This document shows positions 12,473-21,973 of a stretch of 48,841 bases of DNA, in pieces (within the stretch, counting starts at the first letter, position 1; each line of letters begins with the position of its first letter). A program made the translations under genes and the position numbers. Below the pieces are notes generated by a model that did not search any database, was not told the DNA's origin, and saw nothing but the letters and a program-made list of their open reading frames with translations. Origin of the DNA: a virus (taxonomy: Duplodnaviria > Caudoviricetes); IMG/VR virus record IMGVR_UViG_3300037127_000006, positions 1 through 48,841 of that record, one strand, 5' to 3'.

Positions 12473-14825
12473 AGCGGTAGTCTTCGGATTCCTTGTACCA
12501 GTCTTTCGGTCCCCTGGGCCTGTACCACGTCCCTCTCTTGCCGGTGCCCTTCTGTTCCCACCTCAAGGCCGTCATGCAACGCGACAGTCGCCTGGAATCG
12601 CGTGGTGATACCTTTCCGATATCAAGACCGAGTGCACGTTCAAGCAATTCCATAGCCGTTGCCGAATCCTTTTTCGGTGCTTCCCCCAGTCCGTTTACGT
12701 AATTGTAAAGCGCATCCTCCCAGACGTCCACTTCACGGCGCTCCTCAGCTTCGGCGCCGGCCACTTCCTCATCGACCATCGCCCACCATCTCTCCCCTCC
12801 CCGGTAGCGGTGATACGCTTCGGCAAACAGTTGTTCCCGGTCGGCGCGAATGGCGTCCAAGTCGATTCCCCGACAATGCAGGTAGTAGAACCGCCTGGAG
12901 CCGGTGACATCGCGGCCGGGCTTGGCGGCGTTGGTCGTGCCGACGAACACGCATGAACGTGGATGCTCCAAGGTGCGGTGCCCGTAGGGAACCCGGTAGA
13001 CATCATTGCGGCACGAGAGTACCTGTTTGATGCGCGTCTGCTCGGCGTTGCGGAACGAGTCGAGTTCCGACAGCTCGATCAGGAATTTCCCCCGCAAGAC
13101 GAGGAAGAAATCCTTGCCGTCTGACATCCTCGCATTACAGTCCACGTACCACGGGCCTCCGATGGCTTCCATGGCGGAAGACTTCTTGATCCCCTGCGGG
13201 CCTTGCAGGATTACCATGGTATCGCACTTGCAACCGGGCTGGAATATTCTGGCGATCATCGAGACCCAGAATGACTGGCTTACCCCGTAAGTGTACTCGC
13301 TGGAACCGCAACCCATGTAGGACTCGAAGAAGTAAGGCACGCGCTCCTTGCCGTCCCACGTCAGGGACTTGACCCACTCCTGCGGTCCGTTTCTCTCGTT
13401 GCGCCGGCAGTAGGCACGAACCACCCTGCGGGCCATGTCCTCGGATACCTTCGGGAGTCCCAATACCATCTGAAACATAATGGCGAGTTCCAAGTCGTCG
13501 TCGTCCGTCCATTCCCGCGGGCTGCCGTCGGTGCCCTTGAGGGTGAAATGAGCCTGATGGAAGGAGTCGTACCAGACCAGCTTCTCGATACCCTTGAGCT
13601 GACTCAGGGCCTTGACGAGATTGGATTCAGAGCAGATCGGCGCCCCGCCGCTGGTACGTGCCAAGCCGAGAATCTTGGCAAGCCTCTTTGCGTCCTCATC
13701 GGCGTAACCATCCTCCTCCGCCCAAGGCTTCAGGGCATCCGGAACCTCCACGGGATACTGATGCTCCTGGATGGCCTCAGAATCGCCCTCACAGACCACT
13801 GGAGTCTCCCGGGAGGGTTCAGGGTCGGATACAGGCGCCGGAAGAGGCTCAGGAGGCACTGGTGGCTCTACGGGAGGCTCGAATAGCTTCGCCCGGGGCC
13901 GTGCCCACGCCAGCAGATCCTCCCATGATCCGGTGAAATCAGCAACATCCCATCCGTCAGGCTGATCGGAGACATCCAGCAGCTTTACCGACGCCACACC
14001 GACGAACATGGCCAGATATCGCTGGATTTCTTGGCCTGCATCCTGGCCAGCCGGCCCCGCATCCGGCCAGATCAGCACATGACGGCCCGCCAGAGGCTCC
14101 CAGTCCGCCTTCTCCCACGCTTTGGCACCATTGGGCCATGTCGTGGTCACGTAGTATGTTCCGGCGAGCTTGTGGGCCGCCTCAGCGCATTTCTCGCCCT
14201 CGACCACGAGAACGGGCTTATCCGGACGGTTTGAAAGGTCGTGCAGATTATAGAGCGGCCTGGGGGTGGCGGGGGAGCGGTTCGTCCACTTCCTACCCTC
14301 TAACGAGTACGAAAATGGCCTGAATGTCTTGTCCCGTTTGCCGTCCTTGTCCGGCTGCTCCAAGTAACGAGCCACGTAAAACCAAGGGGAACCGTCAGCC
14401 GTTCGATACAGCCATGATCCTTGGAATTCCAGCCCACTGTTGAGAGTGAATTGGGGCTCCGGAACCCCCTCCGGCGGCGGTACGATATCCGGCTTCGTTT
14501 CCTTGCGCTCGACGGCACCGGGTTGGCCGTCGGGGAGTTGCAAGCGGAAGCCGTAGCGATCGGCAAGACACTTGGCGGCTTCTCCGTTTTTTATCTGATA
14601 TTTCGCCGCGTACAAGCTTATCAGGTCATGGCCGGCTTGGTTCTCGAATGCAAAATCCGCCCACCGGCCCGTCTTCAGGCACACCGAGAAACTGTCCCCC
14701 TTGCCGCCGTGAATGGTTGCGGCATAATATCTGCCACTACGGACGAAGCCACCCGGGACGTGTTCCTGGAGGAAGTCCCTCGCACGCGAGAGCAGGTGGG
14801 CTGACAGGCCGGTGAAGTCAAGCAT
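12450..14825 (-). CDS. TOPRIM primase fused to VapE/VirE-type P-loop helicase
   Basis: VLVVEGEK TOPRIM motif; ILQGPQGIKKSS Walker A, ELSELD, VFVGTTN, TGSRRF; TAATG coupling at 14825. Confidence 0.9.
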   Translation of the reverse strand: MLDFTGLSAHLLSRARDFLQEHVPGGFVRSGRYYAATIHGGKGDSFSVCLKTGRWADFAFENQAGHDLISLYAAKYQIKNGEAAKCLADRYGFRLQLPDGQPGAVERKETKPDIVPPPEGVPEPQFTLNSGLEFQGSWLYRTADGSPWFYVARYLEQPDKDGKRDKTFRPFSYSLEGRKWTNRSPATPRPLYNLHDLSNRPDKPVLVVEGEKCAEAAHKLAGTYYVTTTWPNGAKAWEKADWEPLAGRHVLIWPDAGPAGQDAGQEIQRYLAMFVGVASVKLLDVSDQPDGWDVADFTGSWEDLLAWARPRAKLFEPPVEPPVPPEPLPAPVSDPEPSRETPVVCEGDSEAIQEHQYPVEVPDALKPWAEEDGYADEDAKRLAKILGLARTSGGAPICSESNLVKALSQLKGIEKLVWYDSFHQAHFTLKGTDGSPREWTDDDDLELAIMFQMVLGLPKVSEDMARRVVRAYCRRNERNGPQEWVKSLTWDGKERVPYFFESYMGCGSSEYTYGVSQSFWVSMIARIFQPGCKCDTMVILQGPQGIKKSSAMEAIGGPWYVDCNARMSDGKDFFLVLRGKFLIELSELDSFRNAEQTRIKQVLSCRNDVYRVPYGHRTLEHPRSCVFVGTTNAAKPGRDVTGSRRFYYLHCRGIDLDAIRADREQLFAEAYHRYRGGERWWAMVDEEVAGAEAEERREVDVWEDALYNYVNGLGEAPKKDSATAMELLERALGLDIGKVSPRDSRRLSRCMTALRWEQKGTGKRGTWYRPRGPKDWYKESEDYRSKQADSD

Positions 14826-15852
14826 TACTCCCCCCGATAAAACCTCTCTCGTAAAGCCAGGAACGCCACAGCCGCCACCACCGGGACCACTCCGTTTCCG
14901 CAAAGTCTGAGCCGGTCCACCCGATGGGCCAGCCCATCAGCCATTCGACAAACAGCGGGTTCAAGTTCCGGCCGGCCGGCAAGGACTCGCTTCCATTCTT
15001 CGATTTCTTGGGGTCCCGGGGGCCACTCTCGGATGCCGGCCGGGCCCGGTGAAACAGGTCGAAATTCTCCGCAGCGCAATCCAGTTGACTCATCCGGCTT
15101 TTCCCGTCTTTTCGGATCACAGCCCCGCCGAGCCCCTTGTAATCCCTTGCTGCCGGCGTCGGCCAATTCTTTGCGCTTTCCTGAAGGTCCGGGCCCCCTG
15201 CCCCGCGTTCTTCCCGTTTGCTGTTCGCCCCGCCTGTGATCGTTTTCGGGGTCGGCCAACTGCCGGCATGGTCCCGTAGTTTGATTTGCGGGCATTTCGC
15301 GTCCCTGTATTTCGGGTCGTTCAGGTTCTTGATCCCACCCTCCCCGTCCGACGCTGCGGGAGTGCGCCAGGCAGAAGAGCCGGGCCCGGCCATGGGGCGC
15401 ACCAACATCGGACGCGGAAATAATTCCCCATTCCGCATCGAACCCCATTTCGTCAATCTCTCCGAGGACTTGCCGGAAACCCAAGGTAAGGTGATGTCTA
15501 ACGTTTTCGATGAAAAGCCATTCCGGTTTGGCTTCTTCGGTGATTCTGCGTACATGCGGCCAGAGGTGCCTGGGGTCGTCTTCTCCTTTTTTGTTCCCTG
15601 CAATGCTGAACGGCTGGCAGGGATATCCGGCAGAGATAAGATCCACCTTTCCACACCACGGGCGGCCATCGAAGGTTGCAAGATCGTCCCAGACAGGCGC
15701 TGAATCCATGGCCTTGTTTTCCATCCTTGCCACGAGAGTGGATGCAGCGTAACCATCCCACTCGACCATGCAGACACTTCGATAGGATCGCCCGAGAACC
15801 ATTCGGAGCCCGAGTTCCAGTCCCCCAGCCCCGGCACATAAAGCCAAGCCAT
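14818..15852 (-). CDS. Overlapping alternative-frame methyltransferase partner polypeptide (motif IX-like + W.TP repeats)
   Basis: 344-codon open frame over the whole MTase; WRTP/WPTP x3; LNPLFVEWLMGWPIGWT. Confidence 0.7.
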   Translation of the reverse strand: MAWLYVPGLGDWNSGSEWFSGDPIEVSAWSSGMVTLHPLSWQGWKTRPWIQRLSGTILQPSMAARGVERWILSLPDIPASRSALQGTKKEKTTPGTSGRMYAESPKKPNRNGFSSKTLDITLPWVSGKSSERLTKWGSMRNGELFPRPMLVRPMAGPGSSAWRTPAASDGEGGIKNLNDPKYRDAKCPQIKLRDHAGSWPTPKTITGGANSKREERGAGGPDLQESAKNWPTPAARDYKGLGGAVIRKDGKSRMSQLDCAAENFDLFHRARPASESGPRDPKKSKNGSESLPAGRNLNPLFVEWLMGWPIGWTGSDFAETEWSRWWRLWRSWLYERGFIGGSNA

Positions 15853-15856
15853 TCAT
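14825..15856 (-). CDS. DNA (cytosine-5) methyltransferase, catalytic frame
   Basis: Motif I LCAGAGG, IV GYPCQPFS, VI ENV, VIII R.R, X GNGVVP. Confidence 0.92.
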   Translation of the reverse strand: MNGLALCAGAGGLELGLRMVLGRSYRSVCMVEWDGYAASTLVARMENKAMDSAPVWDDLATFDGRPWCGKVDLISAGYPCQPFSIAGNKKGEDDPRHLWPHVRRITEEAKPEWLFIENVRHHLTLGFRQVLGEIDEMGFDAEWGIISASDVGAPHGRARLFCLAHSRSVGRGGWDQEPERPEIQGREMPANQTTGPCRQLADPENDHRRGEQQTGRTRGRGPGPSGKRKELADAGSKGLQGARRGCDPKRREKPDESTGLRCGEFRPVSPGPAGIREWPPGPQEIEEWKRVLAGRPELEPAVCRMADGLAHRVDRLRLCGNGVVPVVAAVAFLALRERFYRGE

Positions 15857-18254: not shown

Positions 18255-19502
18255 TTAAATCGGCCCTCCCGGCTGCGGTCCCGCAGGAGCCTCGTTCATT
18301 GCCGGAGTCGTTTCAATCGGCATCATCAGCTCCACGTAATCCAGCTGGAGTTGCGGCTTGCCCTGGTACTGCCCTTCATGCCAGAGCACCCTGATCGCCA
18401 CGGTGTTCTCCTTGGCGTAGATGCAGTTGAGGCCGACCAGATCATCGAACGTGGTGAATACGGCTTCCTTCTGGCCCTTGACTTTGATGGAACGGCCAAC
18501 CCACGGCCCGTTCTGGTTGGTTCCGCGGGAGAATTCCTTCACGTCCAGCACCATGACCTCGTTGGAGAGTTTAGACTTGTCGGCCCCCTGCGGGAGATGG
18601 CACAGCGGCGGCCGCGGAGGCATGCCTTCGGGAGCGGCAGGGGTTGCGGGAGGAGCGGTGTGTTCAGGAGCTACCGGTGCCTTCGCTCCGGACGGGATGG
18701 AATCCGGAACATCGGAAGCCATCGGAACATCCTTCGCGGGTTCCGTAAACGTATTGAGAGCCTCATCCACCGCGCCGTGCATCCTGGACTTCGGCGGTTC
18801 CGCAGAAGGAGCGTCGGCCGCCGGGACCGTTGCCGGCGCCTTGTCCGGATCAATGTCCTCATCATCCATTCGCACGAAGTTGTTCATGTCCGAGGACATC
18901 GGAGCGACCTTCGAGATATCACGCACCACCGTCTTGATGCACATTTCCCTGTACCACTTCGCCCAGATCCCGTTGGCCTGCTGGGAGCATCCACGCCGCT
19001 TCTCGATCTGCTCACGCGAGAGGATACTCACATACGGAAACCCATCCTTCGTTGTCAGGGTGCAGTACGCATGGGTGATCTGGTTGTCATCCTTCTTCGT
19101 CGTCAGGCTCGGGATGTGCTTCAGATGCGGTCCCTTCTCGTCAACCCAGTGGGAGAACTCATCCCCGTTGTAGACCACGTTGGCGTGAACGAGGCCGATC
19201 TCCCCGGAGTTGCGGATCTTCTTGAGGAGTCCCGCCGCCATCACGGTGTACTTCGCCACGTTGCCGTACATGTTGATAACCGCGTCATCGCCATCCGGAA
19301 TCAGGCCGTCCTGCGCGGCTTTGCGAATCTCCCCCAAGAGCTGAGACAGATCGCAGTTGCCGAATCTGGGCTCCTCCTTGATCCTCATGCACGCCGCCTG
19401 CATGAACCGTTGCGGGTCCAGATGCTTCGGCATGTACTGGGCAATCTCATCCGCCTTCGCCATCACCTGCTGGATGAACCAGTCGGAGTTCTGTTGATTC
19501 AT
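18255..19502 (-). CDS. recT: RecT-family single-strand annealing protein with C-terminal extension
   Basis: AAQDGL.PDG, GLLKKIRNSG, VY.GDEF, W...EM..KTV.R; adjacent to yqaJ. Confidence 0.88.
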   Translation of the reverse strand: MNQQNSDWFIQQVMAKADEIAQYMPKHLDPQRFMQAACMRIKEEPRFGNCDLSQLLGEIRKAAQDGLIPDGDDAVINMYGNVAKYTVMAAGLLKKIRNSGEIGLVHANVVYNGDEFSHWVDEKGPHLKHIPSLTTKKDDNQITHAYCTLTTKDGFPYVSILSREQIEKRRGCSQQANGIWAKWYREMCIKTVVRDISKVAPMSSDMNNFVRMDDEDIDPDKAPATVPAADAPSAEPPKSRMHGAVDEALNTFTEPAKDVPMASDVPDSIPSGAKAPVAPEHTAPPATPAAPEGMPPRPPLCHLPQGADKSKLSNEVMVLDVKEFSRGTNQNGPWVGRSIKVKGQKEAVFTTFDDLVGLNCIYAKENTVAIRVLWHEGQYQGKPQLQLDYVELMMPIETTPAMNEAPAGPQPGGPI

Positions 19503-19693
19503 TTTTCCTCCGCGCAGTTTTTGCAGACGGCCAGCGTTGCCCGTCCTTGTTTTCCATGAAGTTTCCCGTACCCAGCGGCGACCTCTCCGGGCTTTAAGTT
19601 GTCCGGAATTTTGTGGAGGCCCTGGGTGTCACACTTACACAAGAAAGTCTCACTGACCCTCTTGCCGCATTTCTGGCATGTTGGTTTCTTCAC
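19499..19693 (-). CDS. Small zinc-finger protein
   Basis: CQKC...CKNC; coupled at both ends. Confidence 0.65.
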   Translation of the reverse strand: MKKPTCQKCGKRVSETFLCKCDTQGLHKIPDNLKPGEVAAGYGKLHGKQGRATLAVCKNCAEEK

Positions 19694-20568
19694 TTCGCCT
19701 TCACCTTCCTCGGGTTCACCCGAAACTGTTTTCCTCGGGAGATAGTAAAGGCATCTCCCTTCACCTTGTTCGCCTCTCCGATCTGGCTGAGGATCTTCGC
19801 CTTCGCCTTTGTCTTTTCCAACTCCGCTGCCTTGACGGCCTTCAAGGCGTCGTTGTATTCCTTCGCCAGAGCCGCGACGTCTTCCGTCATGTCCAGCGTT
19901 TCGTTCTCACGCCAGCTCGAATACCTGGAGCAGATGAAATCGGCGTCCTTGTTCCAGTCGATCGCAGGTTCCTCGTTGGCTTCGATGGTACGCCAGAATT
20001 CCGCGACGACCTTCAGGATCGCCTGGTGGACTTTCTCATCGGCTTCCTGTTCGATCTTGACCCACTTGTTGCCACCGACGAGAGCGACGATGTAGCCCTT
20101 GGGGACGCCGGCAACGAGAAGCTGATGCTGGAGCTGGAACAGAATATGAGGAGGGGGTTCCACGATCCCGTCACGTTCGATCCATTTCTCCCAATACTGA
20201 AAACCATCGACGTTTTTGATCTCCAGCATCGACGCCGCAACGTCCTTGCCATTGTCAATAATGTAGTCGAATGACGAGCCGATCCGGTGCTCCGGAAGAC
20301 GAACGTAGCGGTCGGCCTTGGCGATCTTCCATCCCCATTTCTCAGCCGCGCCGATGGCGATCGAAGGCTCCAGGACACGACCGGAAAAGATCCGTTCGTT
20401 CTCTTCGATCTGGATGATCTGCTTGTTCTTTTTTTCAGCCCATAATTGCAAGGCAGATTTGTAAGGCGACACTCCAAACAGCACCGACACGTCCGTTGAG
20501 GTGATATCTTGGACTCGCATCTGAAGCCAGTCCTCGTGGGATTCGGGTTTGATTGCTAACCTCTGCAT
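19690..20568 (-). CDS. yqaJ: YqaJ-like (lambda-exonuclease family) recombination nuclease
   Basis: WL..R...ITST, SPY...L.LW..K, SSFD, LEIK, QLQHQL; start 20568 after GGAGG (ORF-track extension to 20718 runs through the array). Confidence 0.9.
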   Translation of the reverse strand: MQRLAIKPESHEDWLQMRVQDITSTDVSVLFGVSPYKSALQLWAEKKNKQIIQIEENERIFSGRVLEPSIAIGAAEKWGWKIAKADRYVRLPEHRIGSSFDYIIDNGKDVAASMLEIKNVDGFQYWEKWIERDGIVEPPPHILFQLQHQLLVAGVPKGYIVALVGGNKWVKIEQEADEKVHQAILKVVAEFWRTIEANEEPAIDWNKDADFICSRYSSWRENETLDMTEDVAALAKEYNDALKAVKAAELEKTKAKAKILSQIGEANKVKGDAFTISRGKQFRVNPRKVKAK

Positions 20569-20591
20569 TTTTCCTCCGTAAAAGAATAAAC

Positions 20592-20831
20592 TGCCGGACC
20601 AGACCTCAACCCGACTAACCAAAACAGAACCTAAACTAATCAACCCTAACTGAACAACCCGAACCAAAACTGCCTCACCTGAACTAACCAAACCGCAACA
20701 AGACTGACCTGAGCGCACCTAAACTGCCATAACCTGACATAACCCAAAGTAACTGGACGTTCCGCAACAAAACTGCCCGAACATAACGAACCTCACCGTA
20801 ACTTTCCGGAACGAAAAAGAACGCAACTGCC
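20592..20831 (-). ncRNA. Phased pentamer array: 4 units of GGCA + 9-15 x [GTT/GGT-like triplet + NN], plus terminal GGCA; putative guide RNA array
   Basis: Anchors start at 20831, 20777, 20728, 20674, 20595; unit lengths 54, 49, 54, 79 nt; 32/44 triplets GTT or GGT, 40/44 begin with G. Confidence 0.85.
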
Positions 20832-21323
20832 TTAACTCCTTTTCTTCGCCAATTTCGCAATCGCCATTCTCACGGATGACAATTCCTTGTACTCCTTGTA
20901 CCGGCGAGCCCAATCCTGGGCTTCGTTCATAGCCTTGGAGATCACCTGTTCACGCAGATAGGGACGTTCCTTGACAATCTCCATTGGGGCGTACCCCTTT
21001 TCGTCGTCGCTGTCGATGACGCTGTGGAACGCTTTCTGCTGGATCTGCTTGCCGTCCTTGATGACAGCAATGGTGATGTGGTTGACCATGTGCCGGGCCT
21101 GCCAGAGCCGGAATTTGTGGGCGGCAACGGAATCCTGCCACTCGAAGGCATCATGGAGGGGAGACTTCGGACTCCGTGCCTCTTCGACGATCTCTTCCGG
21201 CGTCGGGAATTTTCCCGACTTGTCGTACAGCGAGTAAAGGGCCTCCCCGTACCGTTGTGCGGCTTCCTCGCTGAACTTGCCGCCGGCCTTGAAGATCCTG
21301 CGTTTCGTTTTTGCCCAACTCAT
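20832..21323 (-). CDS. Partner protein of the RAMP-like gene (helical, possibly nucleic-acid binding)
   Basis: TPEEIVEEAR...SPLHDAFEW.D..AA...R..QAR; ATGA-coupled to 21320..21973; stop abuts the array. Confidence 0.85.
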   Translation of the reverse strand: MSWAKTKRRIFKAGGKFSEEAAQRYGEALYSLYDKSGKFPTPEEIVEEARSPKSPLHDAFEWQDSVAAHKFRLWQARHMVNHITIAVIKDGKQIQQKAFHSVIDSDDEKGYAPMEIVKERPYLREQVISKAMNEAQDWARRYKEYKELSSVRMAIAKLAKKRS

Positions 21324-21973
21324 TTGGTCTTCACCTTAAATGTGCCGTTCGGGCCGGCGGTCCGAGAGCCGGGACGCCACTCGCCGACCCCACAGAAGAA
21401 ACCGGCGTAGTTGAAAAGATTGATGACCTGATCGGCGGAGATGAGGTTCTTGGCGAACCGGACTTGAAGCACGGCACTCCATCCCTCAAACGCGCCACGA
21501 TAGCGAATATCCGCCGTCTTCGACATTCCGCCGATAACGACATGGTCCTCCCGCATAACGAGCTTGTCGTATTTGAGAGGGACCAGATCCCCGATGACAT
21601 ACAGCGCACCGTTGACCAATTTCTTCGTCACGTTCTCGATGACGGTTGAAGTGTTGGCAACAGCCGCCTTGAAACCAGAGGCAGGGAAGCCGAAAGTGTC
21701 GGCCTTGTAAGGCCATGACTCCCAAGCATTGAGTTTCTTTTTCGGAAGTTTCGCCCCGGGGATGACGTGCAACGATCCGACGAATTCATCGAAAGGAACC
21801 TTGGCATCCTTCGCGCTTTTGGCCTTCTTCGTCTGCTTGTCCAGAATCATCTTGATCGCCTTGGAAGAGAACTTGTGGACGATCAGTGGAGTGAGTCCCT
21901 CGACAGTAAACTTGATGACTTCCGTTTCGATAGGCGCGATCTCGACCTGCGTTTTCTTTTTCAGGGCAGGCAT
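21320..21973 (-). CDS. Stand-alone RAMP/Cas7-like RNA-binding protein
   Basis: First strand FTVEGLTPLIVH, FPASGFKAA (cf. RAMP PGSSLKG), C-terminal Gly loop GFFCGVGEWRP....NGTFKV; GGAGG RBS. Confidence 0.75.
   Translation of the reverse strand: MPALKKKTQVEIAPIETEVIKFTVEGLTPLIVHKFSSKAIKMILDKQTKKAKSAKDAKVPFDEFVGSLHVIPGAKLPKKKLNAWESWPYKADTFGFPASGFKAAVANTSTVIENVTKKLVNGALYVIGDLVPLKYDKLVMREDHVVIGGMSKTADIRYRGAFEGWSAVLQVRFAKNLISADQVINLFNYAGFFCGVGEWRPGSRTAGPNGTFKVKTK

Follow-up and report, generated by a model that had tools for sequence, protein, structure and literature searches.

In a virus record of 48,841 nucleotides (Duplodnaviria; Caudoviricetes; IMG/VR IMGVR_UViG_3300037127_000006), the whole of which we call the window, a VIPR locus lies directly upstream of yqaJ, and its last guide, U4, matches the yqaJ genes of kin phages better than it matches the adjacent copy. 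From these comparisons, we think it probable that U4 silences a rival's yqaJ and that the phage's own copy is spared by selected mismatches, some of which are silent and exchange one codon block of Leu, Ser, or Arg for the other. The anatomy of the locus, the decoding of the guide, the occurrence of a better-matching kin phage without Vipr, and, across the clade, both the linkage of guides to self-like sites and the excess of codon-block switches are established.

The 48.8-kb record carries portal, head, tail-tube, terminase, primase, helicase, recT, and yqaJ genes; at 14818-15856, two long frames of 343 and 344 aa also overlap on the minus strand, and each matches DNA methyltransferase families. 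Upstream of yqaJ (19690..20568, minus strand), which codes for a RecE-like recombination exonuclease (PF09588, E 5e-20; phrog_434), the minus strand carries two genes, with products of 217 and 163 aa, as well as a repeat array of 244 bp; recT (18255..19502, minus strand; PF03837, E 1e-27) is downstream of yqaJ and likely in the same transcription unit. The 217-aa product of vipr (21320..21973) is RAMP-like and in a phmmer search matches SUSP1 Vipr (PDB 36pp; E 9e-5, and E 1.1e-11 for the family profile), its R159 and E198-W199-R200 aligning with the SUSP1 thumb Arg (R138) and the acidic-Trp-Arg residues of the G-loop (D177-W178-R179). The 163-aa gene (20832..21323) is a vap-like accessory gene in phrog_15946 (unknown function); its product has no named domain, its Atlas clusters are unnamed, and no nuclease domain was found in it. 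A Pfam search gave no family for either vipr or vap, and hence no GIY-YIG or HNH nuclease gene at the locus. An alignment-based Vipr search collected 80 related viral loci (a single-protein Vipr query gave none), and a vap homologue adjoins vipr in 74 of them. Given the SUSP1 Vipr match, the aligned thumb and G-loop residues, and the same plan in the 80 related loci, the locus is, as judged from its sequence, a VIPR system with a Vipr protein, a vap gene, and four guides.

The array (20831-20588, minus strand) consists of four units with 10, 9, 10, and 15 NN dinucleotides (U1, 20778..20824; U2, 20729..20770; U3, 20675..20721; U4, 20596..20667), separated by NN-GGCA junctions, and ends in a GGCA-G junction that leads into a T-rich tract (20588..20595) directly before the yqaJ ribosome-binding site; a terminator-like pattern at 20615-20593 is a consensus match only. 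Arrays of pentamers joined by NN-GGCA in the same register recur in the 80 related loci. According to the available text of two preprints (10.64898/2026.04.26.720920; structures, 10.64898/2026.04.26.720927), VIPR comprises a phage Vipr RAMP protein, one accessory gene, and pentamer-repeat guides; the first of these further describes a 1-nt wobble skip, targets in competing phages, and a staggered-array type, and transcription of the target is shown to be blocked by SUSP1 VIPR. The window shares the Vipr RAMP protein, the accessory gene, the pentamer guides, and, as computed from sequence, the wobble skip and targets in rival phages, and its array conforms to the 9-16 pentamer repeats (GGY/NN or a related consensus) expected of VIPR. 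It departs from the published systems in three ways: the triplets are mostly G[G/T]T rather than the GGY that is also seen in related loci; the 3′ pseudoknot tail of type II VIPR (SUSP1) is absent between units, which abut through the NN-GGCA junction; and the predicted target is the version, in kin phages, of a gene that adjoins the array. The architecture appears to fit the wording of the fig. S18 legend for the staggered-array VIPR type, in which each guide begins where the preceding one ends.

A preliminary description of this DNA had read the reverse complement of the U4 NN dinucleotides as a conserved YqaJ motif, matching 9/15 dinucleotides and 12/15 residues at codons 32-46 of the adjacent yqaJ. 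Parsing of the array confirms that string and its register, and we reproduced both counts, which amount to 20/30 bases over a footprint (20431..20475, minus strand) coding for GVSPYKSALQLWAEK; the best 1-nt-skip site of U4 anywhere in the window is this one (20475-20432). Skip lengths of 0, 2, and 3 give no coding match beyond the array itself, and the self matches of U1-U3 in the window are not above those of shuffled guides. Of shuffled U4 strings, 5/1000 reach the self match in dinucleotides and 75/1000 in bases, so the nucleotide match to self is by itself modest, whereas in residue scoring, which is blind to synonymous codons, 0/2000 shuffles reach 12/15 at self. That U4 resembles yqaJ by chance is suggested by the 75 base-level shuffles and by four guides having been tested; it is nonetheless very improbable given the residue-level result and a 26/30 match in a guide-blind set of kin.

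For those kin, the 80 closest viral yqaJ loci were chosen without reference to the guide, by C-terminal peptide motifs and tblastn (0.86 Mb). The top match among them, L407, pairs with U4 at 26/30 bases, with the 1-nt skip computationally on the wobble base and a single mismatch across the first eight codons of pairing, and carries AGC38, CTC39, and CTG42; 300 shuffled U4 guides reach maxima of 18-23 over the same set. L407 is a 45-kb complete phage with 47% identity and the same structural module as the window, and Vipr was not found in it. The earlier suggestion that U4 is aimed at the yqaJ of rival phages thus gains support. Scored genome by genome, four kin phages give 26, 25, 23, and 22/30, with 0-1/1000 shuffles as high, and two other yqaJ-bearing kin give 19/30, which is at chance level. 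All 33 metagenome matches to the guide letters are in yqaJ and in codon phase, the best at 25/30, the pattern scanned having been picked after the match had been seen; GTDB returned one chance match. Neither a perfect U4 target nor the self site with reverted codons was found, the best site being the one at 26/30. Zero matches came from an exact scan of ten U4 dinucleotides in viral contigs and from a twelve-dinucleotide pattern that left codons 33, 39, and 44 open, run on metagenomes and GTDB genomes; in 3 records, full U4 had no match within three mismatches, and contigs of run X1, possibly the source of the window, held no variants and no rival spanning the footprint. None of the 80 yqaJ loci has vipr within 2.5 kb, so there is no same-guide sister for comparison.

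The preliminary description further proposed that the phage's own copy escapes through three synonymous changes. TCT38, TTG40, and TTA42 are present as described; of the 10 mismatched bases, 4 fall in these codons and the other 6, which are non-synonymous, in V33, A39, and A44. The mismatches include two bases at codon 33 and four consecutive hard ones at Ser38 (TCT) and Ala39. Reverting codons 38, 40, and 42 would lift the self match from 67% to 80%, the working cut-off in the available text of the VIPR papers (10.64898/2026.04.26.720920; 10.64898/2026.10.15.759431). Because U4 pairs with the coding strand, a change from CTN to TTR at Leu would leave only an rG.dT wobble, and the hard block would then be the four bases of codons 38-39.

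How these codons arose differs among the three. A tree from which the footprint was excluded makes P0122 (GVSPYKSHFQLWHEK; support 100/98) the sister of the window. The sister and most of the family (92/119) have Phe at position 40, from which TTG needs only a third-position change from TTY, and Leu40 is written TTR in 10/25 metagenome rows (not deduplicated). Ser38 is common to the window and P0122; the family residue is Thr (112/119), one step from either Ser block, and TCN is used at Ser38 in 5/6 and 2/4 sites of two kin sets. Leu42 is conserved, and GC-matched kin write it TTR in 4/26 cases and TTA in 1/26. TTA42 is rare in these kin, and TCN is common at Ser38. From genome codon use, at least three of four switches are expected with a probability of 0.066, or 0.29 without codon 40. 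Protection of the U4 site by three synonymous recodings is therefore partly supported by the sequence comparisons: the rarity of TTA42 in kin speaks for it, and the likely origin of TTG40 from Phe and the six non-synonymous bases speak against it. An internal promoter as the cause of TTG and TTA was considered, and none was seen. As a separate observation, nine wobble bases of the footprint are A/T, although the guide skips this position; measured against the gene that holds it, no other of the 67 distinct kin sites has so large an excess. The pattern is absent from other self-like sites, and the patch is possibly recombined.

Across other loci of the clade, recoding or self-sparing appears well supported by sequence comparison. 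The window and 71 of the 80 related loci, 72 in all, yielded 352 guides of at least 8 NN; 46 of the 72 are on whole or nearly whole contigs and the rest are loci of 5-12.6 kb. Each guide was scored at the residue level against the open reading frames of its own contig or locus. Guides decoding to a protein of their own phage number 24 at p<=0.01 (3.5 expected) and 12 at p<=0.001 (0.4 expected), and the genes matched include members of the NusG, tape measure, RusA, PD-(D/E)XK, VRR-NUC, SLT, and tail chaperone families as well as vipr itself. On contigs of at least 25 kb, all 14 self-like sites, including that of the window, lie within 5 kb of the guide, compared with 26/122 for non-significant guides. 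At these sites, and leaving out the window, 25 of 34 Leu, Ser, and Arg codons are in the block that the guide misreads (13.7 expected, P 4e-6). The excess persists with per-gene codon use after also omitting the near-duplicate L078 (24/33 vs 13.7, P 3e-5), and with one guide per genome after omitting the window, L007, and L078 (19/28 vs 10.5, P 1.3e-4). By residue, again without the window, it is seen for Leu (12/14 vs 5.8) and Arg (7/11 vs 4.1) and is not significant for Ser alone (5/8 vs 3.3). Wobble-type switches (9/10 vs 4.7) are as enriched as hard ones (15/23 vs 8.6).

Controls are flat, with 216 misread-block codons vs 217.0 expected for non-significant guides, 921 vs 920.9 for shuffled guides, and 4 vs 3.2 for footprint residues not coded by the guide; wobble A/T is flat as well (74 vs 72.2), so the switches do not stem from an overall enrichment in A/T. 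Codons flanking the footprints have a mild excess of minority codons (96 vs 78.3, P 0.01). Four of the 24 self-like guides had homologous top non-self sites, three of them found in targeted scans, and in all four the non-self copy is the better match; for the remaining 20, the pool examined held no homologous rival. In seven actinophage VIPR loci, 0/23 guides (20 distinct) decode to self at p<=0.01. The flank excess, the equal enrichment of wobble-type switches, the lack of homologous rivals for most self-like guides, and the actinophage result weigh against the favored reading.

These counts bear on whether U4 instead acts on its own gene, binding yqaJ weakly through rG.dT and rU.dG wobble pairs to give graded autoregulation that tunes the yqaJ-recT operon. 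With wobble pairs counted, self would reach 24/30; the target is 165 bp from the start of the guide; self is the best residue match to U4 among the 120 closest proteins; several self-like sites in other loci match their own guides at 80-86%; and mismatch-tolerance data were not found in the available passages of the VIPR preprints. A self-directed guide should nevertheless favor matching codons, yet hard switches are enriched outside the window (15/23 vs 8.6, P 0.002). Moreover, kin genes match U4 better than self does, and the available text of 10.64898/2026.04.26.720920 reports no self match at or above 80%. We consider autoregulation improbable and kin targeting with a spared self copy the better description of U4.

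Individual guides at other loci resemble U4. A G007 guide decodes 8/8 to the motif PLFPRYLF of its own NusG, which is written there with TTG, AGA, and TTG, and the kin copies in L404 and L354 (74% and 70% identity) match the same guide at 16/16, the sites in G007 and L404 differing at synonymous positions only; Vipr was not found in the L404 and L354 contigs, which are 73% and 42% complete. The L007 NusG uses TTG, CGG, and TTG, and the L007 guide reads AG at that Arg. Elsewhere, guides of VIPR-positive phages match the vipr genes of other phages (L032 5784 and L047 7117; 23/24 and 18/18) and match self at 17/24 and 13/18. Those self mismatches are mostly amino acid changes, so escape is mixed there too. 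The contig names of L404, with its perfect NusG target, and of the guide carrier L010 share an IMG/VR dataset number, which suggests that the two co-occur.

Survivor bias offers another route to the same pattern: kin would be targeted without any recoding, new guides that match self would be lost, and the survivors would be those that happen to read a codon block absent from self. It predicts the same codon-block excess as recoding does. At the U4 site, L40 and possibly S38 need nothing beyond ordinary descent, from Phe and Thr or from the state of the sister, and the NusG tree does not separate the four close kin, so TTG-TTG may have arisen once. Against this, H39A and H44A are specific to the window relative to the sister protein (H44 is present in 105/119 kin), and both lower the U4 match, as does the rare TTA42; and just 1 of 37 GC-rich NusG sites outside the guide carriers writes both Leu codons as TTR (2 if Phe codons are counted). 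We consider survivor bias rather unlikely and retain selected mismatches as the favored account.

The other guides of the window are less informative. The best site for U1 in 8 Mb (17/20, in codon phase) is in the gene after portal in G056 (L488 3-476); 6/1000 shuffles within that genome score as high, making it a lead only. G056 is also the phage best matching U4, and the U1 target gene has no homologue in the window. Full U2 and full U3 have no exact target in viral contigs. In the mRNA sense, U2 decodes to [FL]AT[HQ]TG[IM][RS][IM] and U3 to YA[HQ][HQ][FL]A[FL]Y[HQ][DE], which we took to resemble the catalytic-Arg motif of tyrosine integrases and the QLxxY motif of PD-(D/E)XK nucleases, respectively; neither reading was confirmed, their best sites being no better than those of shuffles. 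For L004, L023, L026, and L066, the best non-self sites of several guides decode to apparently recurrent motifs in other phages, VLADN and VDCEIG among them. Among 32 records matched, seven cultured phages of Mycobacterium smegmatis and Gordonia (L506-L512: Quico, Gorge, Donkeykong, Saal, UmaThurman, Pipp, and ODay) carry VIPR of the same clade with intact arrays, annotated as hypothetical, and would be ready laboratory models. In ODay, the cassette is directly before the tape-measure gene, which also holds the best self site of each of the two guides parsed (p ~0.035).

VIPR, its wobble alignment, and self-sparing by vrRNA-targeting guides are already published. In the available text of 10.64898/2026.10.15.759431, vrRNA-targeting guides match self less well than they match rivals, and guides target conserved coding motifs in the wobble phase, with escape said to need amino acid-determining changes. 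Our observations are alike in that self scores below rivals and that conserved coding motifs are read in the wobble phase; they differ in that the loci spared are adjacent protein genes rather than non-coding vrRNA loci, with an excess of silent Leu, Arg, and Ser block switches. In the literature as available to us, guides aimed at kin copies of an adjacent gene, or six-fold codon switching, were not found, although the supplementary tables of that preprint may bear on self-matches; "yqaJ" has 0 occurrences in the available text of two of the VIPR preprints. The free-standing homing endonucleases of T4 (seg/mob; PMC2988022, as available in part) have sites hundreds to thousands of bases away, and present a likeness by analogy only: in mixed infection, the weapon acts on a conserved gene that related phages carry. 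Seg and Mob are protein-guided nucleases acting by cleavage and gene conversion, whereas here the specificity would be RNA-encoded and the outcome silencing. We therefore describe a known system with an apparently new variant behavior, a guide beside an immune allele combined with codon-block switching, for which the support is comparative.

By analogy with SUSP1, Vipr would coat the processed guide, the NN bases of U4 would pair with the yqaJ coding strand with the wobble base skipped, and the Vipr-U4 complex would block transcription of a rival's yqaJ, and perhaps recT, near the yqaJ start in co-infecting kin. Our analysis suggests that pairing begins at the 3′ end of the guide, where the self mismatches sit; selected mismatches, silent in part, probably spare the phage's own allele, and with guide and immune allele within 0.1-5 kb of each other, recombination would not separate them. 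A broader proposal, to which we give an even chance, is that VIPR cassettes may be linked weapon-and-antidote modules in which the guide attacks the kin allele of the next gene and the antidote is the allele that the phage itself carries, recoded at Leu, Ser, and Arg, whose codons fall in two blocks and offer the sole silent escape from a wobble-blind guide.

The VIPR preprints, in their available text, argue that targets read without their wobble base resist escape by synonymous change. Our data point to six-fold codons as a loophole in this resistance, one that is over-used at the phages' own copies and that gives a rule for self/non-self discrimination in a guide system that has neither PAM nor memory. 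The natural pairs of sensitive and immune alleles would serve for measuring mismatch and wobble tolerance, which is relevant to VIPR engineering, and the fact that guides sit so close to homologues of their targets offers a hint of how they arise or persist. If the weapon-and-antidote proposal is true, RNA-guided warfare among kin would be legible in the codons that phages choose and would drive allele replacement as homing endonucleases do.
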